From contig NZ_CP017260.1 in assembly GCF_001735745.1 (NCBI RefSeq), forward strand, positions 2,250,001 through 2,282,000: 32,000 nucleotides of DNA. Direction: 5' to 3'. The notes beneath the pieces were generated by a model, which saw only the letters and a program-made list of their open reading frames with translations, was not told where the DNA came from and searched no databases. This document shows positions 1 to 27,064 of this stretch, in pieces. The stretch comes from Formosa sp. Hel1_33_131 (lineage in GTDB: Bacteria; Bacteroidota; Bacteroidia; Flavobacteriales; Flavobacteriaceae). Each line of letters starts with the position of its first letter. The first letter of the stretch is position 1. The position numbers and the translations under genes were made by a program.

Positions 1-91
1 TTGCTATGCAGGAGATGAAATAAGAATCATACAATTTACTAATTAATAATCTTTAATAACAATAATAACAATAATAACAAATCTAAACATT

Positions 92-1053
92 ATGAGAACA
101 CAAAAACCAAACATTATGAAAAACAAATATTTAAAAGGGGGCATACTAGCCCTGATGATGATCGCAGGAACTGCGCTGCAAGCGCAGACGACTGCAACTA
201 CAGACGCAGGTCTTGTTAAAGGAGCTGGAGCAGGAGTGTCCGTCAAATTGATAGACAACAAGGGAACTTCAAATACCTACAAACTAACAATGGTATTACA
301 TCCATTACCTCTACTACAGCGGGTAGTGCAACTACAACTACTTGGCAATTAGGTGGTAGCTTAGTAGATGACACCTATATTGATGTATCTGGTAAAGTCT
401 TTGGTCTTGATAGGATTGAATTAGTTAATATTGCAACTTCTCAAGCTTCTACAAATGCCACAAATAAATCTGTTCATGGAGGAACAGGGTCAGGTTGGAC
501 ATTGCTTGTAAGAGATGAATCAACAGGAGATATTAAAAAGTTAAAAGCTACGGATTTGATTGTAAGTGGCTTTGTAGATTACACAGCTGATGCGACAGAT
601 GAAGGTAATGGATTTAAAGCGATAACGGCTACTGGAATTCCAGCAACAGCTACGGATAGAGCTAAAATATGGGTGTATCGCAATGGTGCTAAGTTAATTT
701 ACGGCGTGGACTTTACTGTTGCGGCTGATGAAGTTACCGTAACGGAAAAATCACCTACTACCGCTGGTAGTGCTGCAACTATATCGATTGCTGGTACTGC
801 TTTTACAGCAAATAATATTGTTCCTACAACAATTGTTGCTGGGACTAGTGTAATTGGAAGCATTGTCGATGGAACGGCGTCAACAAAAGCTACAGTTACT
901 GTAGATGGGTTTTCTTTCACGGCAAATGCCGTTGGAGTAACCACAATAGTAGCAGGAAGTACTATTACTGCTATAGTTGATGGAGTTGGAACATCGACGG
1001 ATGGTTGGCAATTATATACTGATGATATTTTTGAAATACAGTGGATTAAATAA
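92..1053 (+). pseudogene. Secreted fibre-like repeat protein with a broken reading frame (frame 2 ORF 92-352 continues in frame 1 to 1053)
   Basis: The likely true start is ATG 116, giving signal peptide MKNKYLKGGILALMMIAGTALQA|Q. Frame 2 encodes ...VSVKLIDNKGT, matching VVKVIDRKGT at the N-terminus of the next gene. Frame 1 is open from 220 and reads KYLQTNNGITSITSTTAGSATTTTWQLGG... on into the 502-1053 ORF, so a 1-nt shift lies at ~268-300. The C-terminal half has an internal repeat (FTANNIVPTTIVAGTSVIGSIVDG / FTANAVGVTTIVAGSTITAIVDG). Confidence 0.55.
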
Positions 1054-1072: not shown

Positions 1073-1148
1073 ACAACTTAACACAAGTTGTTAATACAAT
1101 TTTTATATTATATCTCAGCTGCTTTTTATACCAAAAGGAGCAGTTGAG
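1073..1148 (+). terminator. Two hairpins between the small and giant fibre genes (possible terminator or attenuator)
   Basis: Hairpin A is acaactt (1073-1079) / aagttgt (1085-1091). Hairpin B is ctcagctgct (1114-1123) / agcagttgag (1139-1148) with one G-U pair, followed by tttatt. No clean U-run, so function is uncertain. Confidence 0.3.
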
Positions 1149-1235: not shown

Positions 1236-4200
1236 ATGAAAATTACCTTCACTCTAAACAAATCTAGACGCTATATCATCACACTTTTGGTGGTAGGTTT
1301 ATTGAGCTTTCAATCGCAGGCTCAAGTTGTTAAGGTCATTGACAGAAAAGGAACTATTACTGATGTCAACAATAATCAAGTAACCACATCGCTCGCTACT
1401 GCGAAGCCTACGAATCCAGTAATAGGAGATGTTTGGTTTGAAACTGATACATTGATATCTGAAATTTGGGATGGTACAAACTGGGTAAAAATAAATACAT
1501 GGCTTGGGTACAAAACTATCCATCATAACCACGCCACAATGCCTCTTGCCATCACACATGCACTTCATAACAATGCAGATATCCATATTGAAGGTGTGGC
1601 AGGGCTATCAATTACGAATACAGCTGTAAATGACGGCACAAACTTTTACATAACAAATACAACAGGGGCAGATAAAGCTTTATCTTTTGCAGGATTTACA
1701 GGAGCCTTTCTAAGGAATGGAGGTGCGGAAGCAGACCGATCTGTTTACGGTTTAACCCTAAAACCCAATACCCGTTATTTGTGCCATATTACAGAAAATT
1801 CAGGATTTTATTTTAACGCAACTGAGGCAGGGGGAAGTGGAGACATTGTGCCACTGTGGAAATCTGATACAAATGGAGGTGATTATGCTATAAACGATAT
1901 TATTAATTATGATGGTAATTTATACAAAAACCTCACGGGAGATAATTTTGATACCTTGCCAAATGCGGATGCCGCCAATTGGGAGGTTTTTGCAGGTGGT
2001 GTTTCTCCAACAGGTAATCCAAACTATTTACAAGCTGAAATTACAACTACTGGTGTCACACAAGGTAGTACTCTAGCTTTTACTGTAAATGAGTCAAGAG
2101 GATTATCTTATACAGGAAATGCTATTTCTCTTAAACAAGGGACAACCTATTTATTGAGAGGCGCTGTCAGTGGTTATTTTAATAGCTCAACTAATAATGA
2201 ATTGCGTTTGCAATGGGAAGATGCTAATGGTGTTAAAATTGGAGAATTGTCAAGACAAATGCCTGGAAGTGTTTACGAGAACTATGCAGAAACCCCTGAA
2301 GCAAGTGCTGTTTACACCCCTACCGCAGACATAGATGTCCATTTAGAGGTAGTTGTTGAAGGAAGTGAGTTCACAGCCCAAGGAAATTCTTTTGGTTATC
2401 TACAAGTTATCGAATTATCTCGTGGTGGTGGAACAGGAATAGCCCTTTACGATGTGAATACTGATTACAGTACAGGGGATTCAGTAATTAAAGACGAGAA
2501 AATCTATATAGCAAATGGAAATATTCCAAGTGGTACTCTATTTGCCACAGGAACAGCAGGAGCCACTTGGAAAGAAATTTATGAAGACGCTAATAGACAA
2601 ACATACGATACACCAACCGCAGTATTTTCTGAGACAATAAGCAGTCAATTAAGAGGTTTTGGTGATTACTGGACGCTTAGTGCACAAGTAGTTGATGACC
2701 CAACAAACCATCTTGGACATGATGGAACATATCCAGTTGTTAATGTAGCAGGGAAATATCGTATTACATTTTCTGGTAATGTATATCACCATGGGACATA
2801 TCACTGGATGAGTTTAGCAATAAGAAGAGGCGGGGTATGGCAAAATATTACTAAAGCTGACGGAGGTAATTCTCAATATGTTCCTGGTTCAGCTGTGCAT
2901 GCCAATTTCCTTATTGACGGTGTTGTAGATTTGCAAGTAGGTGACCAATTGGGTTATCGCTATGACTCTGATGGTAATCACTATCTTTTAAATGCCAATA
3001 CTAACAATATGATTGTTAGCAAATTAAGTTATGGTATTGGTAATATCAGAATTTATGATTTGGCAGATACTTACCAAATAGGTAATGTTGTAATTAAAGA
3101 CACTAAACTGTATCAAGCCAATGATGCTATTCCTGCAACTACTGCTTTTGTAATCGGAACAACAGGAGCTACTTGGACAGAAATATCGGCCGATGTTTCT
3201 GCGGTACGAGAATGGGTAAACAATACAAACGGAGGGATTTATGCAATAAATGATCTTGTTTCTTACAGTGGAGTGATTTACAGAAACCTCTTAGGATCAA
3301 ACCTCGACACAATCCCAAGCTCAGACACTACAAACTGGGCACAAACAAATTCATATCTTGGTAATCAAACAGTACATCATAATGCTGTTACTACACTTGC
3401 CATAAAACACGCAGACCACAATAACGCAGATATTCATGTAGAAAATACGGGAGATTTGTCTATAGCAAAAGTAGATGTAAACGACGGAACAAACTTTTAT
3501 ATAACTAATACATCAGGAATGGACCGACTGTTAACATTCGCCTCTTTTACAGGAGCCTTTCTAAGGAATGGTGGGGCAGAGGCAGATGTGAAAACAGGAG
3601 GCTTAACATTAAAATCTAATACTAGATACCTCGCTCATGTTACAGACAACTCAGGGAGCTTCTATTTCAATGCGACTGAGGCAGGGGGAAGTGGAGACAT
3701 TGTGCCACTGTGGAAATCTGACACAAATGGAGGATTATACAGTACCAATGATATTGTAAATTACAACGGGGTTTTATACAAAAATCTTACAGGAATGAAT
3801 CTTGACACAATCCCAAGCTCAGACACTACAAACTGGGCACAAACAGATTCATATCTTGGTAATAAAACAATCCATTATAATACATTAAGTTTATCAGCCA
3901 ATCCAACAAAAGAAACATTATCTAGTATAGTTTCAGTAACTTCTACAAATGCTACTTTTGTTTATGATGGGGTAGGAGCTACAATAACTACTAATTCATC
4001 ATATTCTGGGTCTTATGATATTGAAGATGCTCTTACAGGAAACGACCATGCCACAGCTGGGCAAGGTACAGAAACTATTACCATAACTTTTGATAGCGAT
4101 GTTAAATTCTCTAAAATGAGAGGGAACGGTCGTCCAATCGAGTACTACAAAGATCTCTCTATGACAGTGTATGACGCTGGTAATAATTCTTTGGCGACTG

Positions 4201-6698
4201 CTGTAGATACCACCACAACAGGTTCAGAATATTTTGACCTCGTAGTTACTCCTCAGGTAATAAGAAAGATAATTTTAACAGCCACAGATAGGGTAAGTAC
4301 TAATCCAGGGGTAAATAACATAGAACTTTTTGGAGCGACGACAAATGATTTAGATATAACTCATGTATTACACAATAACGCAGATATCCATATTGAAAGC
4401 ATAGGGGATTTATCGATTACTAATACAGATGTAAACGACGGAACAAATTTTTACATAACAAATACAACAGGGGCAGATAGAACTTTATCTTTTGTAGGAT
4501 TTACAGGAGCCTTTCTAAGGAATGGTGGGGCAGAGGCAGATGTGAAAACAGGAGGCTTAACATTAAAATCTAATACGAGATACCTCGCTCATGTCACAGA
4601 CAATGCAGGGAGCTTCTATTTCAATGCGACTGAGGCTAGGGGAAGTGGAGTCATTGTGCCATTATGGAAATCTGACACAAATGGAGGATTATACAGTACC
4701 AATGATATTGTAAATTACAACGGGGTTTTATACAAAAATCTTACAGGAATGAATCTTGACACAATCCCAAGCTCAGACACTACAAACTGGGCACAAACAA
4801 ATTCATATCTTGGTAATCAAACAGTACATCATAATGCTGTTACTACACTTGCCATAAAACACGCAGACCACAATAACGCAGATATTCATGTAGAAAATAC
4901 GGGAGATTTGTCTATAGCAAAAGTAGATGTAAACGACGGAACAAACTTTTATATAACTAATACATCAGGAATGGACCGACTGTTAACATTCACCTCTTTT
5001 ACAGGAGCCTTTCTAAGGAATGGTGGGGCAGAGGCAGATGTGAAAACAGGAGGCTTAACATTAAAATCTAATACTAGATACCTCGCTCACATTACAGACA
5101 ATGCAGGGAGCTTCTATTTCAATGCGACTGAGGCTAGGGGAAGTGGAGTCATTGTGCCATTATGGAAATCTGATACCAACGGAGGATCATATGCTATCGA
5201 CGACATTATTAACTACAGTGGAGTTTTGTACAAAAATCTTACAGGTATAAACTTAGATACATTACCAAATGCAGATACAACAAATTGGAAACCAACAGTT
5301 ATTGATGAAAATGACGGAATATCAGCTAAGGACTTACTTGTTTTAGATGGAAATGGGTTAGCTATTGGGGGAGTGATTACTACTGATGGAGCACACACAG
5401 TCCATACTTTTACAACAAGTGGTACATTTGTACCAAACGGGAATACGAACATTGAATACCTTATTGTTGGAGGTGGCGGTTCTGCGGGTATTAGTGGTGG
5501 ATTCTCTCCTTCTGGTGGAGGTGGAGGTGGAGGAGTTCTCACAAACACAACCACAATAGCAAACGCCAACACACCAATTGTAGTAGGACAAGGTGGAGTC
5601 CCTGTTTTTACTGGTGTATTTAGTACATCTAGTGCTACAAACGGAGGGGACAGTTCCCTAGGAGGAATTACAGCTACTGGAGGTGGAGCTGGAGGTTCTA
5701 GTCATGTGGTTAACACAATAGGAGGTGTTGCAGCACCCATTTATGGAGCAGGACTAAATGGTGGTTCTGGTGGGGGCGGTGGTAGAGCTAACACAAATAC
5801 AGCAGGTGGTCAGCCCACAGCAGGTCAAGGTAATACAGGTGGACAAGGAGCAAATCCCAACTCTGGAGGTGGAGGTGGAGCTTCAGCAGCTGGAGCAGAT
5901 GCAGCAGGAAACACACCAGGTGCAGGTGGAGAGGGATTGTCTTCAAGTATTTCAGGAACATCTCAAGTGTATGGTTCTGGTGGTGGTGGAGCTCATAGGA
6001 GTTTTTTAACGCTAGTCCCTGGAGGAACTAACGCAGGTAATGGTGGATTACCTGGAGGATTGGGAGGAAATGGAATAGATGGATTTGGTGGTGGAGCAGG
6101 TGGAACAGGTAATGCAGGTTCAAGCATAATAACTGGTGCAAACGGCGGAAGTGGTGTTGTAATTATTCGATACTTAACAGATAATGTAACAACTGTACTA
6201 GCAACCAATAACGGAAATGTAGGAATAGGAACGGATACTCCAACCCACCTCCTTTCAGTTAATGGGAATGCTTCCAAGGTAGGAGGAGGGTCATGGGCTA
6301 CATTTTCAGATGAACGCGTAAAAGAAAACATTCGTTCTTATGGTAAAGGACTTGCCGAAATTCTAAAAATAAATCCGATTATCTTTAACTATAATGCAAA
6401 ATCAGGATATACAGGGGAATTTTTGAAGAAAGACTATGTAGGTATCACCGCACAAGAAATTGCCAAAATACTTCCAGAGACAGTGACAGAATTCGATGAT
6501 TCCAATGGGCCAAGTGGATTTGCTGACAAAAGACAATTTGATAGTTCTGAAATCTTATGGACTGTTATCAATGCCATACAAGAACAACAAGCACAGCTAA
6601 AAGCGAAAGAAAAAGCAATAGAGGACTTAAAAGCAAGTAATGAAGCTCTAAAAATTAGAATGGTTAAAATTGAAAAAGCATTAGGGGTTAAGGAATAA
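1236..6698 (+). CDS. Giant secreted tail-fibre-like protein (1820 aa): 4 repeated modules, jelly-roll-like domains, F5/8-type-C-like insert, glycine-rich domain, C-terminal peptidase-S74 intramolecular chaperone domain
   Basis: A single uninterrupted 5.46-kb ORF. N-terminal signal peptide ...LLSFQSQA|QVV. Four ~160-aa modules each end in a W..Y..D.V.Y.G..Y.N......P......W motif (CBM5/12-like, as in phage fibres). Gly-rich block HTFTTSGTF...VGGGGSAG...GSGVVIIRY. The C-terminus carries NVGIGT...SDERVKENI...ITAQE plus a coiled coil, the hallmark of tail-spike/endosialidase auto-cleaving chaperone domains. Confidence 0.85.
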   Translation: MKITFTLNKSRRYIITLLVVGLLSFQSQAQVVKVIDRKGTITDVNNNQVTTSLATAKPTNPVIGDVWFETDTLISEIWDGTNWVKINTWLGYKTIHHNHATMPLAITHALHNNADIHIEGVAGLSITNTAVNDGTNFYITNTTGADKALSFAGFTGAFLRNGGAEADRSVYGLTLKPNTRYLCHITENSGFYFNATEAGGSGDIVPLWKSDTNGGDYAINDIINYDGNLYKNLTGDNFDTLPNADAANWEVFAGGVSPTGNPNYLQAEITTTGVTQGSTLAFTVNESRGLSYTGNAISLKQGTTYLLRGAVSGYFNSSTNNELRLQWEDANGVKIGELSRQMPGSVYENYAETPEASAVYTPTADIDVHLEVVVEGSEFTAQGNSFGYLQVIELSRGGGTGIALYDVNTDYSTGDSVIKDEKIYIANGNIPSGTLFATGTAGATWKEIYEDANRQTYDTPTAVFSETISSQLRGFGDYWTLSAQVVDDPTNHLGHDGTYPVVNVAGKYRITFSGNVYHHGTYHWMSLAIRRGGVWQNITKADGGNSQYVPGSAVHANFLIDGVVDLQVGDQLGYRYDSDGNHYLLNANTNNMIVSKLSYGIGNIRIYDLADTYQIGNVVIKDTKLYQANDAIPATTAFVIGTTGATWTEISADVSAVREWVNNTNGGIYAINDLVSYSGVIYRNLLGSNLDTIPSSDTTNWAQTNSYLGNQTVHHNAVTTLAIKHADHNNADIHVENTGDLSIAKVDVNDGTNFYITNTSGMDRLLTFASFTGAFLRNGGAEADVKTGGLTLKSNTRYLAHVTDNSGSFYFNATEAGGSGDIVPLWKSDTNGGLYSTNDIVNYNGVLYKNLTGMNLDTIPSSDTTNWAQTDSYLGNKTIHYNTLSLSANPTKETLSSIVSVTSTNATFVYDGVGATITTNSSYSGSYDIEDALTGNDHATAGQGTETITITFDSDVKFSKMRGNGRPIEYYKDLSMTVYDAGNNSLATAVDTTTTGSEYFDLVVTPQVIRKIILTATDRVSTNPGVNNIELFGATTNDLDITHVLHNNADIHIESIGDLSITNTDVNDGTNFYITNTTGADRTLSFVGFTGAFLRNGGAEADVKTGGLTLKSNTRYLAHVTDNAGSFYFNATEARGSGVIVPLWKSDTNGGLYSTNDIVNYNGVLYKNLTGMNLDTIPSSDTTNWAQTNSYLGNQTVHHNAVTTLAIKHADHNNADIHVENTGDLSIAKVDVNDGTNFYITNTSGMDRLLTFTSFTGAFLRNGGAEADVKTGGLTLKSNTRYLAHITDNAGSFYFNATEARGSGVIVPLWKSDTNGGSYAIDDIINYSGVLYKNLTGINLDTLPNADTTNWKPTVIDENDGISAKDLLVLDGNGLAIGGVITTDGAHTVHTFTTSGTFVPNGNTNIEYLIVGGGGSAGISGGFSPSGGGGGGGVLTNTTTIANANTPIVVGQGGVPVFTGVFSTSSATNGGDSSLGGITATGGGAGGSSHVVNTIGGVAAPIYGAGLNGGSGGGGGRANTNTAGGQPTAGQGNTGGQGANPNSGGGGGASAAGADAAGNTPGAGGEGLSSSISGTSQVYGSGGGGAHRSFLTLVPGGTNAGNGGLPGGLGGNGIDGFGGGAGGTGNAGSSIITGANGGSGVVIIRYLTDNVTTVLATNNGNVGIGTDTPTHLLSVNGNASKVGGGSWATFSDERVKENIRSYGKGLAEILKINPIIFNYNAKSGYTGEFLKKDYVGITAQEIAKILPETVTEFDDSNGPSGFADKRQFDSSEILWTVINAIQEQQAQLKAKEKAIEDLKASNEALKIRMVKIEKALGVKE
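1500..1987 (+). repeat. Intragenic module M1 (most diverged copy)
   Basis: WLGYKTIHHN...NNADIHIEG...DGTNFYITNTTGAD...FTGAFLRNGGAEAD...FNATEAGGSGDIVPLWKSDTNGG.YAINDIINYDGNLYKNLTG...NADAANWEV. Its 5' part resembles M3. Its 3' end resembles M4 (YAI.DIINY..LYKNLTG.N.DTLPNAD..NW). Confidence 0.85.
3351..3848 (+). repeat. Intragenic module M2 (mosaic: 5' two-thirds matches M4, 3' third matches M3)
   Basis: 3306-3539 is identical to 4758-4991 (234 nt). 3541-3637 is identical to 4993-5089. 3711-3845 is identical to 4665-4799 (135 nt). Offsets are 1452 nt (to M4) and 954 nt (to M3), both multiples of 3. Confidence 0.9.
3880..4335 (+). other. Unique insert between M2 and M3, galactose-binding/F5-8-type-C-like domain candidate
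   Basis: The ~150-aa segment ...FVYDGVGATITTNSSYSGSYDIEDALTGNDHATAGQG...ITFDSDVKFSKMRGNG...VNNIELFGA is present once only. The composition and the NNIELFG ending resemble discoidin-type carbohydrate-binding modules. This is a weak by-eye assignment. Confidence 0.35.
4347..4802 (+). repeat. Intragenic module M3
   Basis: DLDITHVLHNNADIHIES...ITNTTGADRTLSF.... The DNA from 4501 on aligns to M2 (3547 onward) with few mismatches. The central patch ~4600-4664 is identical to M4 ~5098-5163. Confidence 0.9.
4803..5291 (+). repeat. Intragenic module M4
   Basis: SYLGNQTVHHNAVTTLAIKHADHNNADIHVENTGDLSIAKVDV... is identical at protein and almost identical at DNA level to M2 until ~5172. It then switches to an M1-like tail. 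Confidence 0.9.
6306..6698 (+). other. Peptidase-S74-type intramolecular chaperone (auto-cleaving) domain of the giant protein
   Basis: Ser codon at 6306-6308 and Lys codon at 6321-6323 within S-D-E-R-V-K, the Ser-x4-Lys spacing of the endosialidase/tail-spike chaperone catalytic dyad. A terminal heptad-like helix follows (QEQQAQLKAKEKAIEDLKASNEALKIRMVKIEKAL). Confidence 0.7.
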
Positions 6699-6829: not shown

Positions 6830-7221
6830 GGCTCTATGTTGTTTGTAATGGGTAATCAAATTTGAGTTTACCGCAAATGAAGTAAATCATATTGATAAAA
6901 TTATTTATATTTCTATACCCTAGCTCTTTTTTTAGCAAGTTGAATTTTAGAATTTAAGTCCTCTAGTATTCCATTATTAATTTTACTTTCAATGTAATTT
7001 ATAATACCACTCCAATGTACTTTTATTGTCTTTACAGCCTTTTGAAAAGGGGAAATGCCACTGTCATCAGCTCTATCGCACCAGAAGGCTAAATAACCTT
7101 CAGCTTGTTTGTCCTCTATGTCCCAAAAGTCTTTAAAAAGGTATTTAAATCTATAACCTTCGCCTAATTTGGGATACATTTCTAGTAGTAAATCCCTTTT
7201 TTCTTTGATTTTAGGAGTTAA
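6830..7221 (-). mobile_element. ISL3-family insertion sequence remnant (C-terminal ~100 codons of the transposase plus a putative terminal inverted repeat)
   Basis: The minus-strand frame is open 7221..6913 and reads LTPKIKEKRDLLLEMYPKLGEGYRFKYLFKDFWD...AEGYLAFWCDRADDSGISPFQKAVKTIKVHWSGIINYIESKINNGILEDLNSKIQLAKKRA. This matches the conserved ISL3 transposase C-terminus (..W...I.NY.ES..TNG..EG.N.KIK..KR.A). GGCTCT... at 6830 resembles ISL3 terminal repeats. There is no N-terminal part and no start context. Confidence 0.6.
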
Positions 7222-7228
7222 TTAATTT

Positions 7229-7555
7229 TTGTTAGTTAATACCTTAAAATTGGAGAGTATTTCAGCAGCAGGTAGTGTAGGCTTCTTATTGATATTTACG
7301 GTTGTAAACGACACAGGATTTAAACTCTCTAAAGAAATTGGTGGTAAAAAAAGCATCCCTTTGCTTGGAGCAATTTTTTATTTTATAGCAAAGGTTGCAT
7401 TGCTTGTTCAGCATTATTCAGTAAGTAAATCTGATGTATTTATAGCAATCGGAATTATTGGATTCTGTTTTGTAATATATATACAAAAACAGAACATAAA
7501 AATAAATAAGACTTTTAAAGCCAGTTTAGCAATCTTGCTTCTTAAATCTAATTAG
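7229..7555 (+). pseudogene. C-terminal fragment of a membrane permease (APC/amino-acid-permease-like), 5'-truncated at the IS remnant
   Basis: It begins with TTG immediately (7 nt) after the truncated transposase frame. The sequence LESISAAGSVGFLLIFTVVN...IPLLGAI plus two further hydrophobic helices looks like the last 3 TM segments of a transporter. 108 aa is too short to be a complete permease. Confidence 0.4.
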
Positions 7556-7641
7556 AGCCTTATAAATTTGACATCATTTAGTCTTTAGTCTATCTTTACT
7601 TTTTTTAAAAGAGGAGAGTTTTCTTCAACGCACTTACAACT

Positions 7642-15345: not shown

Positions 15346-17892
15346 TTACAATTCTTTCGCCTCATTGGGCGATGTTATGTTGACGTCTAATTTCGCATCA
15401 TCTTTGCCAATATCCATCGTGATGGTGTCCCCTTCATGCACATTGGATTTAATAATTTCCTCTGCTAAGGCATCTTCCACATATTTTTGAATGGCACGTT
15501 TTAAAGGGCGCGCGCCGTATTGCTTGTCAAATCCTTTTTCAGCAATAAAACTTTTTGCTTTTGTGCTTAATTTAAGGGTGTATCCTAATTCTGAAATACG
15601 CTCCAAAAGTTTCGCAAGTTCGATGTCAATAATTTTATCAATATCTTCTTTTTCTAAGTTGTTGAAAACGACCACATCGTCAATTCTGTTTAGAAATTCT
15701 GGTGCAAAAGCTTTTTTAAGTGCGTTTTCAATCACCGAACGTGCATTGGAACTTTCTTGAGATTTTTGAGCGGCAGTTCCAAACCCAACACCAGAGCCAA
15801 AATCCTTCAATTTTCGAGCGCCAATATTCGAGGTCATGATAATGATTGTATTGCTAAAATCAATTTTTCGACCCAAACTATCCGTTAAAAATCCATCATC
15901 AAGCACTTGAAGAAGCATGTTAAATACATCTGGATGTGCTTTTTCAATTTCATCTAAAAGAACCACTGCGTAAGGTTTACGTCTGATTTTTTCGGTCAGT
16001 TGTCCACCTTCTTCATAACCAACGTATCCTGGAGGTGCACCGACCAATCGTGAGATGGCAAATTTCTCCATGTATTCACTCATGTCAATTCGTATCAATG
16101 CATCTTCACTATCAAATAATTCTCTAGCAAGTACTTTGGCAAGCTGTGTTTTACCGACGCCAGTTTGTCCTAAAAAGATAAATGACCCAATGGGCTTATT
16201 GGGGTCTTTAAGTCCCGCACGATTCCTCTGAATAGCTTTCACCACCTTTGAAACCGCTTCATCTTGACCAATTACTTTTCCGTTTATGAGCTCTGGAAGT
16301 TTTGATAATTTATTACTTTCCTTTTGAGCAATACGGTTCACAGGAATGCTAGTCATCATGGAAACTACCTCAGCTACATTGTCTTCACTGACAACAATGC
16401 GATTTAATTTAGATTCTATTTCCCATTTTTCCTGCGCTTCTGCAAGACTCTTTTCTAAACGTTTTTCGTCATCTCTTAGCTTGGCAGCTTCTTCATATTT
16501 CTGTTTTTTAACCACAGAGTTTTTAGTCACTTTTACTTCTTCAAGTTGTGCTTCTAGTTCCACGATTTGGTCAGGAACATCAATATTTGTGATGTGAACT
16601 CTTGAGCCTGCTTCGTCCAACGCATCAATCGCTTTGTCTGGTAAAAACCGATCGGTCATATAACGATTGGTCAATTTTACACAAGCTTCAATAGCTTCAT
16701 CTGTGTACTCTACATTGTGATGATCTTCGTATTTGTTTTTAATGTTGTTTAATATCTCAATCGTTTCACTCACCGTTGTTGGCTCCACGATGACTTTTTG
16801 AAAACGACGTTCAAGTGCGCCGTCTTTTTCGATGTGCTGTCTGTATTCGTCAAGAGTTGTAGCGCCTACACATTGCAGTTCGCCACGTGCCAATGCGGGT
16901 TTAAACATATTAGAAGCATCCAAACTTCCCGTAGCGCCACCGGCCCCTACAATCGTATGGATTTCATCGATGAATAAAATAATATCGTCATTTTTTTCCA
17001 ACTCATTCATCACCGCTTTCATGCGCTCTTCAAACTGACCACGGTATTTGGTACCAGCTACAATGCTGGCCAAATCTAAAGTAACCACGCGTTTATTGAA
17101 TAAAATTCGAGAGACTTTACGTTTGATGATTCGAATGGCCAAGCCTTCGGCAATAGCAGATTTGCCAACACCAGGTTCACCAATCAACAAAGGATTGTTT
17201 TTCTTACGACGGCTTAAAATCTGAGAGACACGTTGAATTTCTTTTTCACGTCCGACTACAGGGTCTAATTTCCCTTGTTCTGCCATTTCAGTAAGGTCTC
17301 TTCCAAAATTATCTAGAACGGGGGTTTTCGATTTTTTCACTCCTTTTTGAACGCTGCTTTGACCAAATGAACTGTCTTTATTTTCATCTTTAGGCATATC
17401 TTCACTTGGAAAAGCGGCTGCTTTTGGAGTCTCCGTGTAGTCGTCGTTTGTGATCATATATTTAAATTGTTCTTTAGCGTTATCGTAATCTACTTTTAGT
17501 TTATTCAATAGCTTTGTTGTAGGGTCATTTTCATTTCTCAACACACATAAAAGTAAATGTGCTGTATTTATAGATTTACTTTGAAAAAGCTTCGCTTCTA
17601 AAAAAGTTGTTTTTAAAGCCCGTTCTGCTTGACGTGTCAAGTGGAGGTTTTTTTTCTCATCAGAAGCAATCATAATATTGGGGTTGGAAGGACTGAGGAT
17701 TTCAACCTTACGACGCAAATGACTAAGGTCAACGTCTAAAGCGTTCAAAATATCGATTGCCTTGCCATTGCCATCTCTTAAAAGTCCAAGCATCAAATGT
17801 TCAGTGCCAATAAAATCGTGACCTAAACGAAGTGCTTCTTCTTTACTGAAAGAAATAACATCTTTAACTCTGGGGGAAAAATTATCATCCAT
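15346..17892 (-). CDS. clpC: ATP-dependent Clp protease ATP-binding subunit ClpC (class I AAA+)
   Basis: Duplicated Clp_N repeat at the N-terminus. Two Walker A sites ([16 protein letters not shown]). UVR-like linker [16 protein letters not shown]. 848 aa. Confidence 0.85.
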
Positions 17893-18142: not shown

Positions 18143-20689
18143 ATGGTAGAAGGAGAAAAGTTAATCCCCATTAATATAGAAGATGAAATGAAGTCAGCTT
18201 ACATCGATTATTCGATGTCGGTAATAGTGTCTCGGGCACTTCCTGACGTAAGGGATGGATTAAAACCTGTGCATCGCCGGGTCTTATTTGGAATGCATGA
18301 ACTTGGTGTTCGATCCAATACAGCGCACAAAAAATCGGCAAGAATTGTTGGTGAAGTTTTAGGTAAGTATCACCCACACGGAGATACCTCTGTTTATGAC
18401 GCAATGGTTCGTATGGCTCAAGAATGGAGTTTGCGATATATGCTGGTTGATGGGCAAGGGAATTTTGGGTCGATTGATGGTGACAGTCCTGCAGCAATGC
18501 GTTATACAGAAGCCAGAATGCGTAAAATATCGGAAGATATGCTTGCGGATATTGATAAGGAAACGGTTGATCATAAGTTAAATTTTGATGATACACTTCA
18601 AGAACCTACTGTATTACCAACACGAATTCCAGGCCTATTAGTAAATGGTGCTTCAGGAATTGCTGTGGGTATGGCCACCAACATGCCTCCTCACAACCTT
18701 TCGGAAGTAGTGGATGGAATTACAGCATATATAGATAACACAGACATCGATATTGATGAATTAATCACATATGTTAAAGCACCTGATTTTCCTACAGGAG
18801 GAATTATTTATGGCTATGATGGTGTGAAAGAAGCGTTTAAAACAGGTCGTGGCCGTGTCGTTATGCGTGCCAAAGCGAATATAGAAGACGTGAATGGACG
18901 TGAGTGCATAATCGTTACCGAAATTCCATACCAAGTCAATAAAGCAGACATGATTAAGAAAACTGCTGATTTGGTGAATGATAAAAAGATGGAAGGGATT
19001 TCTACCATTCGTGATGAATCAGATAGAAATGGAATGCGCATTGTTTATGTTTTAAAAAGAGATGCCATTCCTAATATTGTCTTAAATAAACTTTATAAAT
19101 ATACAGCACTTCAGTCTTCTTTTAGTGTGAATAATATTGCGTTGGTAAATGGACGCCCAGAAATGTTGAATCTAAAAGATATGATTCATCATTTTGTAGA
19201 GCACCGTCACGAAGTGGTCGTACGTCGTACAACCTACGAACTTAGAAAAGCCGAAGAACGCGCTCATATATTAGAAGGATTGATCATTGCTTCCGATAAT
19301 ATCGATGAAGTCATCGCAATTATTAGAGGTTGTTCAAATGCTGAAGAAGCCCGTGAAAAATTAATCGAACGTTTTAAACTGAGCGAACTACAATCCAAAG
19401 CGATTGTTGAAATGCGATTAAGACAATTAACAGGCTTAGAACAAGATAAATTACGTGGCGAGTACGATGCAATCATGAAAACGATTGATGAGTTAAAAGA
19501 CATTCTTGATAAAAAAGAACGTCGTATGCTCATCATTAAAGAAGAGCTTGCTGTTGTTAAAGATAAGTATGGTGATGAACGTCGCTCTGTGATTGAATAT
19601 GCTGGAGGTGATTTATCGATTGAGGACATGATTCCTAATGAGCAAGTTGTCATTACAATTTCACATGCAGGGTATATCAAACGTACGTCATTAACAGAAT
19701 ATAGAACTCAAAATAGAGGTGGAGTTGGACAAAAAGCATCCACCACTCGTAACGAAGATTTCTTAGAACATTTATTTGTAGGAACCAACCACCAGTATAT
19801 GTTGTTCTTCACTCAAAAAGGAAAATGTTTCTGGATGCGTGTTTATGAAATCCCAGAAGGTAGTAAAACGTCTAAGGGGCGCGCCATTCAAAATTTAATA
19901 AACATAGAACAAGACGATAAAGTCAAAGCGTTTATTTGTACTCAGGATTTAAAAGACGAAGAATACACGAATTCGCACTATGTGATTATGGCCACCAAAA
20001 AAGGTCAGGTTAAAAAAACATCTTTAGAACAATATTCTCGACCAAGAACGAATGGAATTAATGCCATTACGATCAAAGAAGATGATGAATTACTAGAAGC
20101 AAAACTTACCACAGGCGAAAGTCAAGTGATGTTAGCATTAAAATCTGGGAAAGCCATTCGATTTGAAGAAGCCAAAACCCGTCCAATGGGCCGTGGTGCT
20201 TCAGGAGTTCGCGGGATTACTTTAGCGCATGAAGCGGATGAGGTGATCGGAATGATTGCTGTAGATGACATGGAAAGTAACATCCTAGTCGTATCTGAAA
20301 ACGGCTATGGTAAACGATCTAGCTTGGAAGATTACCGAATCACAAATAGAGGTGGAAAAGGTGTCAAGACCATTTCAATTACAGATAAAACAGGTAATTT
20401 AGTATCCATCAAAAATGTAACCGATGAAGATGATTTAATGATCATTAATAAATCAGGCGTTGCAATCCGATTGGCTGTAGAAGATTTAAGAGTGATGGGA
20501 CGTGCCACACAAGGCGTTCGTTTGATCAACCTTAAAGGGAATGATTCGATTGCTGCCGTTGCAAAAGTAATGCGGGAAGATGAAGAAGACATCGAAGCAA
20601 TTGAAGGTTTAACGGAAGAAGGCGCTGAAGAAACCACAGGTGCTACTGAAACAGATGACACAACTGTTGATACTCAAGAAGAAGAATAA
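18143..20689 (+). CDS. gyrA: DNA gyrase subunit A
   Basis: [25 protein letters not shown]-type segment [17 protein letters not shown]. Active-site Tyr in [10 protein letters not shown]. Acidic C-terminal tail. Confidence 0.95.
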
Positions 20690-26332: not shown

Positions 26333-26416
26333 GGAGAGGTGCCAGAGTGGTAATGGAGCAGATTGCTAATCTGTCGACGGGTAACTGTCGCCAGGGTTCG
26401 AGTCCCTGTCTCTCCG
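26333..26416 (+). tRNA. tRNA-Ser (anticodon GCT)
   Basis: Acceptor ggagagg/tctctcc. Anticodon arm gcaga-ttGCTaa-tctgt. Long variable arm cgacgggtaactgtcg. T-arm cagggttcgagtccctg. Confidence 0.9.
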
Positions 26417-26447
26417 CAAGAAGTAAATTAACAACAGATAATCAATT

Positions 26448-26522
26448 CGGGGTGTAGCGTAGCCCGGTTATCGCGCCACGTTTGGGACGTGGAGGCCGCA
26501 GGTTCGAATCCTGCCACCCCGA
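26448..26522 (+). tRNA. tRNA-Pro (anticodon TGG), copy 1
   Basis: Acceptor cggggtg/caccccg. Anticodon arm ccacg-ttTGGga-cgtgg. T-arm gcaggttcgaatcctgc. 75 nt, 100% identical to 26910-26984. Confidence 0.9.
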
Positions 26523-26528
26523 CAAAGA

Positions 26529-26560
26529 GGTCGTCACGCTAGAAGCGTGACCACCCCGAC
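26529..26560 (+). repeat. tRNA-end fragment: first 5 nt of tRNA-Arg, then a GTCACGC hairpin, then a duplicated tRNA-Pro 3' end
   Basis: ggtcg (as at the start of tRNA-Arg, 26991), then gtcacgc-tagaa-gcgtgac (26533-26551), then caccccgac (26552-26560, identical to 26515-26523). Confidence 0.75.
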
Positions 26561-26668
26561 TAAAGTGTTTTCGTTTATTCGTAGGCACTTTTAAAATTAA
26601 TAGAATGTCTGTTGTTAATTTGTTTTTTAGTTTTTAATTTATTTTAAGAACAAATTTGATAACAAATT

Positions 26669-26786
26669 CGGGGTGTATCACGCAGAAAATGCGTGACAGG
26701 ACGTAGCCCGGCTTGCAAAGCCAACGGAATTGTTATCGCGCCACGTTTGGGACGTGGAGGCCGTCACGCTGAGGCGTGACCACCAC
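26669..26786 (+). pseudogene. tRNA-Pro(TGG)-derived pseudogene interrupted by three short hairpin-forming segments
   Basis: The segments cggggtgta, cgtagcccgg and ttatcgcgccacgtttgggacgtggaggccg are identical to the intact gene. They are interrupted by tcacgcagaaaatgcgtgacagga (26678-26701) and cttgcaaagccaacggaattg (26712-26732). The T-arm is replaced by tcacgctgaggcgtgac (26764-26780), and the 3' acceptor is degenerate (caccac). Confidence 0.8.
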
Positions 26787-26909
26787 ATTAAAAAGGATAT
26801 GAATGAATTTTCATGTATTTTTTAGTTAAGTTCATAGTAGAAGTGAAGCATTAATTTTGGAGCGTAAAATCAAAAAAAGAGGTGCGAGAAGATATTTAGA
26901 TAACCAATT

Positions 26910-26984
26910 CGGGGTGTAGCGTAGCCCGGTTATCGCGCCACGTTTGGGACGTGGAGGCCGCAGGTTCGAATCCTGCCACCCCGA
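26910..26984 (+). tRNA. tRNA-Pro (anticodon TGG), copy 2
   Basis: Identical to 26448-26522, offset 462 nt. Confidence 0.9.
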
Positions 26985-26990
26985 CAAAGA

Positions 26991-27064
26991 GGTCGCATAG
27001 CTCAGCTGGATAGAGCACCTCCCTTCTAAGGAGGCGGTCCTAGGTTCGAATCCTAGTGCGATCA
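26991..27064 (+). tRNA. tRNA-Arg (anticodon TCT)
   Basis: Acceptor ggtcgca/tgcgatc. D-arm tagctcagctggatagagc. Anticodon arm cctcc-ctTCTaa-ggagg. T-arm ctaggttcgaatcctag. Only 6 nt separate it from tRNA-Pro. Confidence 0.9.

Follow-up and report, generated by a model that had tools for sequence, protein, structure and literature searches.

In the mosaic adhesive trimer (MAT) fibres of Bdellovibrio bacteriovorus, a signal peptide is followed by an N-terminal domain that does not vary and then by a long trimeric body (Caulton et al. 2024, PMC10769870). Thirteen of them carry a C-terminal Peptidase_S74 (S74) domain with the motif SDxxxK, and eight have tips of other kinds, some of them TNF-like. 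The fibres are on the cell surface, their tips have been swapped in evolution and their anchor is not known; some were found in the vesicle proteome (PMC10769870). This work describes a giant protein of comparable design from Formosa sp. Hel1_33_131, a North Sea flavobacterium. The stretch of DNA analysed, hereafter the window, has 32,000 nucleotides (contig NZ_CP017260.1, positions 2,250,001 to 2,282,000) and a G+C content of about 36%. Its single very long open reading frame (ORF), which the initial annotation had reported at positions 1236-6698 (+ strand), is real, and its 1820-aa product is 100% identical to NCBI FORMB_21820, labelled 'tail fiber domain-containing protein' in UniRef. The giant is an exceptionally large form of the variable fifth gene (g5) of a conserved, non-phage five-gene cassette of marine Flavobacteriaceae. 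Taken alone, it is another cellular S74-terminated fibre, of a kind already known; for the cassette context, and for how large and how varied in its tips the g5 family is, no earlier description was found in the literature.

The giant resembles the MAT fibres in being encoded by the cell, in having a signal peptide directly before a family-wide N-terminal domain (here g5N), and in its long mosaic body. The tips of the g5 family, like those of the MATs, are S74-ended (SDxxxK) or show other adhesive folds, TNF-like ones included, and are swapped between paralogues. In addition, the loop motif V-G-x-x-x-x-P-x-x-x-L found ahead of S74 in the MATs is also present in the giant (VGIGTDTPTHLL, at residue 1662, ahead of its S74 domain). 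On the other hand, the hosts of the g5 family are non-predatory marine Flavobacteriaceae, the N-terminal domain of the giant has about 60 aa and no MAT_N match (about 130 aa in the MATs), and its body is made of CBM5/12-like units, copies of a repeated module called A here, and a Gly_rich_2 domain. A fixed set of five genes, with a substrate of the type IX secretion system (T9SS) and an outer-membrane barrel, has not been reported for the MATs. The organisation of the g5 family follows the same logic as that of the MATs, though the N-terminal domains differ. The architecture thus has a precedent (PMC10769870), where the initial annotation had supposed that its function was not established. The accessible portion of the supplements to the MAT paper makes no mention of Bacteroidota, and searches of the literature on flavobacterial S74 or 'tail fiber domain-containing' proteins and on Gly_rich_2 yielded nothing relevant.

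Three other known systems share parts of this architecture. The S74 fibres and tailspikes of phages, such as the K1F endosialidase and the L-shaped tail fibre pb1 of T5, also have an S74 domain above the Pfam cut-off with a Ser-Lys dyad, and a modular receptor-binding layout in which a conserved N-terminal attachment part is followed by a variable distal part; the giant differs in its Sec signal peptide, the lack of virion genes nearby and an almost complete lack of similarity to sequenced phages. The C1q/TNF-like heads of Bacillus BclA and BxpB/ExsF match the fold modelled for one segment of the giant, X1 (TMt, the target-normalised template-modelling score, about 0.6), but the giant has no collagen-like stalk, its domain is internal and not terminal, and there is no match at the Pfam level. 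The giant adhesins that Bacteroidota secrete by the T9SS (such as SprB and RemA) share with the giant a very large size, a repetitive sequence and lectin-like modules, both being secreted proteins of Flavobacteriia, and the cassette does include a T9SS substrate; the giant itself, however, lacks a T9SS C-terminal domain and has the S74 chaperone at its C-terminus.

The left flank of the locus was read, in place of the source genome itself, from relatives of the window: a metagenome contig (L001) that is 98.6-99.4% identical to the window and reaches 5.3 kb further left, and three syntenic relatives (L002, L008, L039) that reach 10 kb left. In the cassette, genes 1 to 4 (g1-g4) are followed by one to three variable g5 genes. 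The product of g1 (~180 aa) has a T9SS type-A C-terminal sorting domain (Por_Secre_tail, E 5e-10; TIGR04183), and that of g2 (~215 aa) has a signal peptide, weak matches to OMP_b-brl and OMP_b-brl_2, and a beta-barrel-like C-terminus. The products of g3 and g4 have ~380 aa and ~245-320 aa, respectively. Every g3, g4 and g5 encodes a signal peptide, and an A↓Q cleavage site is common to these three genes in all loci, consistent with the habit of Bacteroidetes to have glutamine at +1. With its signal peptide and g5N, downstream of g1-g4, the giant fits the definition of the g5 family. It is therefore not the orphan of the initial annotation: a frameshifted gene at 92..1053 and three genes further left form the conserved cassette with it.

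A scan of one genome per species, in which the ORFs were annotated with hidden Markov models (HMMs) built from the first four cassettes, gave 29 loci. The complete order g1-g2-g3-g4-g5 was present in 20 of them, from Formosa, Polaribacter, Urechidicola, Tenacibaculum, Thalassobellus and unclassified Flavobacteriaceae; most incomplete loci are interrupted by contig ends, and two are distant partial matches. A search with g3 returned 186 protein clusters, among which the named genomes were only Formosa-like and Polaribacter. L001, L002, L008 and L039 share both the gene order and the site, a slot between a Gfo/Idh/MocA oxidoreductase gene and pcm, while the Polaribacter cassettes occupy other housekeeping sites, between dcuC and dinB or adjoining tig-clpPX-dnaG-gldBC. 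Between L001 and L002 the identity is 81-86% for g1, g2 and g3 and 54% for g4, and g5 can be aligned module by module only. Two or three cassettes occur in tandem in some genomes (L031, L017/L038): a Polaribacter metagenome-assembled genome has three in a row (L031, 1441-12954), and the second cassette of Polaribacter sp. HL-MS24 is divergent, with genes of 436, 89, 944, 88 and 188 aa (L017/L038, 9293-21134).

The similarity to the MATs extends to g3. The Formosa g3 protein matches the NCBIfam model NF053851 (Bdello_MAT_N, 'mosaic adhesive trimer family chimeric fiber protein') at 21 bits, where the cut-off is 60, and 29 of 35 diverse members of the g3 family match it at E<=0.01 (best E 2.8e-6). 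The AlphaFold2 (AF2) model of g3, built from 120 sequences, had a predicted local distance difference test (pLDDT) score of 71.5. Its best PDB matches were to chains from portal-tail and fibre complexes of phages and to CBA120 TSP4 in its N-terminal part (E 6e-4 to 4e-2), and its 66 matches in BFVD at E<=1e-3 were mostly tail-fibre or structural proteins.

The g5 family has a constant head and a variable distal part. A phmmer search with residues 30-90 of the giant matched every g5 in 27 loci (E 1e-36 to 1e-5), and g5N is 50% identical to that of the 479-aa g5 of L008 and 40% to that of the 230-aa g5 of Polaribacter sp. ALD11. Past the N-terminal domain, the g5 proteins, with lengths of 186-1820 aa, have unrelated sequences, among which at least ten recurrent C-terminal types are recognisable. 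Even in the slot between the oxidoreductase gene and pcm of Formosa-clade genomes, g5 encodes 479, 830 and 684 (two genes), 1364, 1368, 1820, or 1818 and at least 649 aa (two genes). A g5N profile searched against 1.84 billion cluster representatives matched 2129 of them at E<=1e-3 and 476 at E<=1e-10. Among the best 146 matches, 79 proteins have a signal peptide and an N-terminal g5N, with highly diverse C-termini. Pfam domains were searched in 64 of these 79: S74 was found in six, CBM_5_12 in five, F5_F8_type_C in four (best E 1e-14), and YadA_head, BppL_N, BclA_C and C1q in one each, most proteins having no known domain. The S74 ending recurs, as in a 742-aa protein of Polaribacter sp. HL-MS24, and several small g5 proteins end in BclA_C/C1q-like domains.

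Two other readings of the family were abandoned. Polymorphic toxins had been suggested by matches to Ntox21, DUF4096 and DUF7688 in relatives, which were judged spurious because no individual stretch was significant and because they lie in repeat regions. Trimeric autotransporters were rejected because the C-terminal anchor is missing. The second half of g5N (P..P.EGD.W.DT......WDG..W, ~40 aa) is also present in 5-23 tandem copies in proteins of up to 4266 aa (P0142-P0146, P0148, P0150 and others), which makes it a widespread repeat unit too; g3 contains weaker copies of it at residues ~165-245. In L030 (11543-14400), three tandem g5 genes share another tip (GGAVFWVDSTGQHGLV...VRAVRAF), which looks like a domain of the DUF1566/Lcl type.

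In L002, L008 and L039, the 10 kb to the left contain miaA, an ion channel gene, genes for a GIY-YIG/RNase T protein, YggS, a DUF1015 protein and a 3-hydroxyacyl-CoA dehydrogenase, and the Gfo/Idh/MocA oxidoreductase gene, after which come four small genes on the + strand and finally the fibre gene itself. Housekeeping genes flank the cassette in L001, L002, L008, L039, L006 and L038, and in five loci, syntenic or related, no phage structural or replication genes were found within 10 kb to the left or right. To the right of the giant gene lie a remnant of an ISL3 insertion sequence (IS), pcm, genes for a DUF5686 protein and smpB, and further housekeeping genes. The initial annotation had described these right-hand neighbours as an IS remnant and housekeeping genes and had seen no prophage context, and the upstream sequence of the three syntenic relatives, in which no prophage lies next to the cassette, agrees with it. 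A tblastn search against 50,697 phage records gave only two weak, short local matches (E about 1e-6); in the phage records, it is the distal tail fibre of Thermus phage phiFa that is similar to the S74 segment. The giant gene is chromosomal and cell-encoded, not a gene of a prophage or tailocin.

In a 219-kb metagenome contig (L003, 10001-26748), adjacent proteins of 2250 and 3310 aa are encoded beside an SbcC-like gene, each with several Gly_rich_2 domains as well as Laminin_G_3 and S74. This contig could be from a jumbo phage or from a cell.

The order of the modules of the giant was obtained from segment-wise self-comparison and DNA repeat analysis, and reads: signal peptide, g5N, A1-B1, X1, C1, X2, C2-B', A2-B2, D, A3-B3, A4-B4, glycine-rich domain and S74. 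The features of the locus, in window coordinates, are as follows.

1..46, + strand: 3' end of g3 (~389-aa protein), the remainder being left of the window; it ends in ...CYAGDEIRIIQFTN and a stop codon, the end of L001 2999..4168.
92..1053, + strand: g4, about 320 aa, with signal peptide; split into ORFs 92..352 and 502..1053.
1114..1148, + strand: terminator-like hairpin between g4 and the giant gene; 14-bp stem followed by a T-rich tail.
1236..6698, + strand: giant g5, 1820 aa.
1236..1322, + strand: Sec-type signal peptide, residues 1-29, predicted cleavage SQA↓Q, judged from the sequence by eye.
1323..1496, + strand: conserved N-terminal domain g5N, residues 30-87 (VKVIDRKGT ... GDVWFETD ... 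IWDGTNW), which defines the g5 family.
1497..1982, + strand: module A1 (residues 88-195) and CBM5/12-like unit B1 (196-249), from self-comparison.
1952..3307, + strand: block of 452 codons (end of B1, X1, C1, X2, C2, B') missing from the 1368-aa allele of L001 (blastn of the window against L001).
1998..2435, + strand: X1, residues 255-400, all-beta, modelled as a TNF/C1q-like jelly-roll (AF2 model and Foldseek).
2439..2588, + strand: CBM-like unit C1, residues 402-451, from self-comparison; AF2 pLDDT 70-89.
2643..3065, + strand: X2, residues 470-610, the segment quoted in the initial annotation; AF2 pLDDT <40.
3045..3338, + strand: CBM-like units C2 (residues 604-653) and B' (648-701), from self-comparison.
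3351..3836, + strand: module A2 and unit B2, residues 706-867, from self-comparison.
3873..4325, + strand: D, discoidin-like (F5/8 type C-like) insert, residues 880-1030, a Pfam match below the cut-off.
4341..5291, + strand: modules A3-B3 and A4-B4, residues 1036-1352, DNA 83-97% identical to the A2-B2 copy.
5412..6173, + strand: Gly_rich_2 domain (Pfam), residues 1393-1646, 34% glycine.
6306..6485, + strand: Peptidase_S74 intramolecular chaperone, residues 1691-1750, with predicted nucleophile S1691 (codon 6306-6308) and K1696.
6528..6695, + strand: coiled-coil-like C-terminal tail, with weak MSL1_dimer and DivIC matches; part of the 130-residue predicted release fragment.
6913..7179, - strand: remnant of an ISL3-family transposase, 88 aa, immediately downstream of the giant gene; its identical counterpart in L001 matches Pfam DDE_Tnp_ISL3.

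The signal peptide, as read by eye, has an n-region rich in K/R and a hydrophobic stretch (YIITLLVVGLLSF) before SQA↓Q, so that the claim of a Sec signal in the initial annotation holds. The C-terminal S74 domain matches Peptidase_S74 (PF13884; cut-off 22) with E 1e-10 and 41.9 bits in the whole protein and with 5e-12 and 46.4 bits as an isolated segment. This region aligns with the MYRF chaperone (PDB 7dc3), with S1691-D-E-R-V-K1696 opposite ADLRAK, and the Ser-Lys dyad of the SDxxxK motif (S1691/K1696) is intact. Coiled-coil-like tails similar to that of the giant are seen in other S74-ended members of the family. The glycine-rich domain corresponds to Gly_rich_2 (PF21722; E 5e-19, 69.6 bits against a cut-off of 24.3, profile positions 1-225 of 226), and residues 885-1663 match PHROG 2295, a phage-protein family of unknown function, with E 2e-52. 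Both the glycine-rich and the S74 domain had been named in the initial annotation, as had about seven CBM5/12-like motifs; self-comparison gives exactly seven such W..Y..Y..W units, five of type B and two of type C. CBM_5_12 (PF02839) matches the whole protein with E 1.4e-9 and 38.3 bits (cut-off 26.2), the aromatic pattern being present in the seven units. Module A, of ~108 aa and in four copies, has no family match, and a NCBIfam scan of the giant gave nothing meaningful, with no match to NF053851.

Other domains proposed in the initial annotation fared less evenly. The discoidin-like insert D covers F5_F8_type_C (PF00754) at nearly full length (positions 2-120 of 127), but with E 0.0025 and 18.4 bits it remains below the cut-off of 28.2; four other members of the g5 family have significant F5_F8_type_C domains. 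Two segments had been called C1q/TNF-like. In whole-protein and segment scans, Pfam matches (C1q and TNF included) were found for neither X1 nor X2, and segment-wise comparison detected no similarity between the two. A homologue search with residues 255-705 gave few relatives of X1 and none of X2. The AF2 model of residues 250-705, for which no more than 12 sequences could be aligned, reached a mean pLDDT of 56, with 50-77 in X1 (about 264-394), 70-89 in the CBM-like units and <40 in X2, whose poor model is explained by the lack of relatives in the homologue search. A Foldseek search of the PDB with this model returned 188 matches at E<=1e-3. The leading ones (4-1BBL, FasL, EDA, TNF, the C1q head, BclA and BxpB, with E 2e-5 to 2e-4, besides ExsF and phage fibre knobs) had a TMt of 0.5-0.63 over ~150 columns, and were assigned to X1 because X1 is the only part of ~150 residues with usable confidence. 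Thus X1 is modelled, with pLDDT 50-77, as folding like a TNF/C1q jelly-roll. For X2, the segment actually quoted, a profile built with the TNF-like tips of related proteins ranked BxpB, ExsF, C1q-related factor and BclA first in the PDB, with E only 0.2-1.4, which is suggestive of a TNF/C1q-like fold and does not demonstrate it. The giant has a TNF-like (255-400) and a glycine-rich domain (1393-1646) together in one secreted protein, a pair that recalls, by analogy, the animal ALK/LTK receptors, with their TNF-like plus glycine-rich ligand-binding region.

The modules turn over between close strains. The block of 452 codons missing from L001 is flanked by an 83-nt direct repeat (on the L001 side, 5992-6074) in strains that are 98-99% identical, which looks like repeat-mediated recombination within the gene. 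The g4 of this genome is broken by a deletion of 1 nt (one A) near position 269, inside the conserved motif IDNKGTIKY; it is otherwise 100% identical to the intact 320-aa gene of L001, and the family HMM matches both halves. This frameshift could be a pseudogene of the isolate or a sequencing error. The hairpin between g4 and the giant gene suggests that the latter has its own promoter or depends on read-through.

Taken together, we consider the giant to be, with reasonable probability, a cell-encoded mosaic adhesive fibre that is matured by S74 and has exchangeable tips. Confidence is high for the descriptive part of this reading, namely the non-phage context, the cassette-linked family, the intact S74 motif, the lectin-like mosaic and the module turnover; for a function as surface adhesin, argued from analogy, the chances are about even. 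The suggestion in the initial annotation of a host-domesticated trimeric fibre or adhesin is compatible with the S74 domain, the signal peptide and the mosaic of putative binding modules. By analogy with known S74 proteins and with the MAT fibres of Bdellovibrio, the giant would be exported by Sec, its signal peptide being cut at SQA↓Q. The S74 domain is predicted to nucleate trimer folding and then to cleave itself off before S1691, which would free a C-terminal fragment of 130 residues and leave a mature fibre of about 1660 residues. The g5N domain may dock this fibre onto an envelope base built by the conserved products of the cassette, for which the g2 barrel, the g1 product delivered by the T9SS and the phage-fibre-like g3 and g4 products are candidates. 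The ligands of the distal lectin-like modules would be glycans or surfaces, whether of algae, of particles or of other cells, and exchange of tips by recombination would alter the binding specificity.

Tentatively, the cassette as a whole might be a previously undescribed envelope apparatus of marine Flavobacteriaceae that displays fibres like phage receptor-binding proteins with exchangeable tips, a counterpart of the MATs of independent or anciently shared origin. During blooms it would let the bacteria attach to glycans of algae, to particles or to other cells, with the S74-ended giant as its most elaborate tip. We regard this wider proposal as possible and somewhat doubtful.

Several findings weigh against the reading as an adhesive fibre of the surface. 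In Pfam and NCBIfam scans, the giant showed neither a T9SS C-terminal domain (Por_Secre_tail / TIGR04183, or type B) nor a lipoprotein signal or an autotransporter barrel, so that it has no evident way of crossing the outer membrane. The similarity to MAT_N sits in g3 and not in the giant, at 21 bits against the cut-off of 60, and the CBM_5_12 matches are short and partial. Because of the frameshift in g4, the cassette may be defective in this isolate. In addition, neither FORMB_21820 nor its four upstream neighbours are among the listed entries of the intracellular, membrane and extracellular proteome tables of the strain (PMC6246565).

Some of these points would suit a fibre that stays in the periplasm or is packed as cargo into outer-membrane vesicles or appendages, and that acts only once released. 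A protein with a Sec signal only and no recognisable signal for outer-membrane export could have this fate, some Bdellovibrio MAT fibres are in the vesicle proteome (PMC10769870), and a paralogous 'phage tail fiber', FORMB_03460, is present in all fractions of the strain and most abundant in the extracellular one (0.14 %riBAQ, relative intensity-based absolute quantification, on glucose; PMC6246565 supplementary tables). The giant, however, is not among the entries listed for any proteome fraction, and the outer-membrane barrel and the T9SS substrate of the cassette indicate an outer-membrane or surface structure. We find a periplasmic or vesicular fate unlikely.

The disrupted g4 and the missing entries in the proteome tables raise another alternative, that the giant is a non-functional relic here, a product of repeat recombination that is no longer expressed. 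Repeat-mediated indels between strains, the IS remnant abutting the gene and the terminator-like hairpin upstream of it would be in line with such decay. Nevertheless, the ORF of 5.4 kb is uninterrupted in an AT-rich genome, its catalytic motif is intact, and a 97% identical allele of an environmental population is intact as well, together with its g4, while the frameshift in the isolate is possibly a sequencing error or a change in laboratory culture; a relic is quite improbable.

That the giant is the receptor-binding protein of a decayed phage, prophage or tailocin element, with an incidental signal peptide, is very hard to sustain: its S74 and glycine-rich domains, the match to PHROG 2295 (E 2e-52), the resemblance to the distal tail fibre of phage phiFa, the phage-fibre-like folds of g3 and the IS remnant beside the gene do recall phages, but five loci have no phage structural or replication genes within 10 kb, a gene order kept across several genera with strong conservation of the first three genes is not expected of a decaying prophage, all g3, g4 and g5 products have a signal peptide, and 50,697 phage records hold just two weak local matches.

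Apart from the cassette, a few observations were made in the window. A hydrophobic ORF of 108 aa (7229-7555, + strand) lies, with the ISL3 remnant, between the giant gene and pcm, and DNA homology to the related contig L008 is taken up again only from position 7581. Four tRNA genes are clustered at 26333-27064 (+ strand), within an ORF-free stretch at 26.2-27.8 kb. A pair of 848-aa ORFs (15346-17892 and 18143-20689) was considered as an inverted duplication, which was rejected, since the two ORFs are unrelated.

In spring blooms, Formosa and Polaribacter rank among the chief recyclers of algal polysaccharide, and their attachment to algae, to particles or to one another is poorly understood. 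The fixed site of the cassette, the conserved anchor genes and the tips that recombine freely even between strains of 98-99% identity suggest diversifying selection on binding specificity. Should the cassette build fibres on the surface, phage-like adhesive fibres owned by the cell would be a concept that reaches from a predatory bacterium to abundant heterotrophs of the ocean, and the co-encoded outer-membrane barrel and T9SS substrate would be a candidate answer to the question of what such fibres are anchored to. The g5 family is a natural library of lectin-like tips that are predicted to be trimeric.

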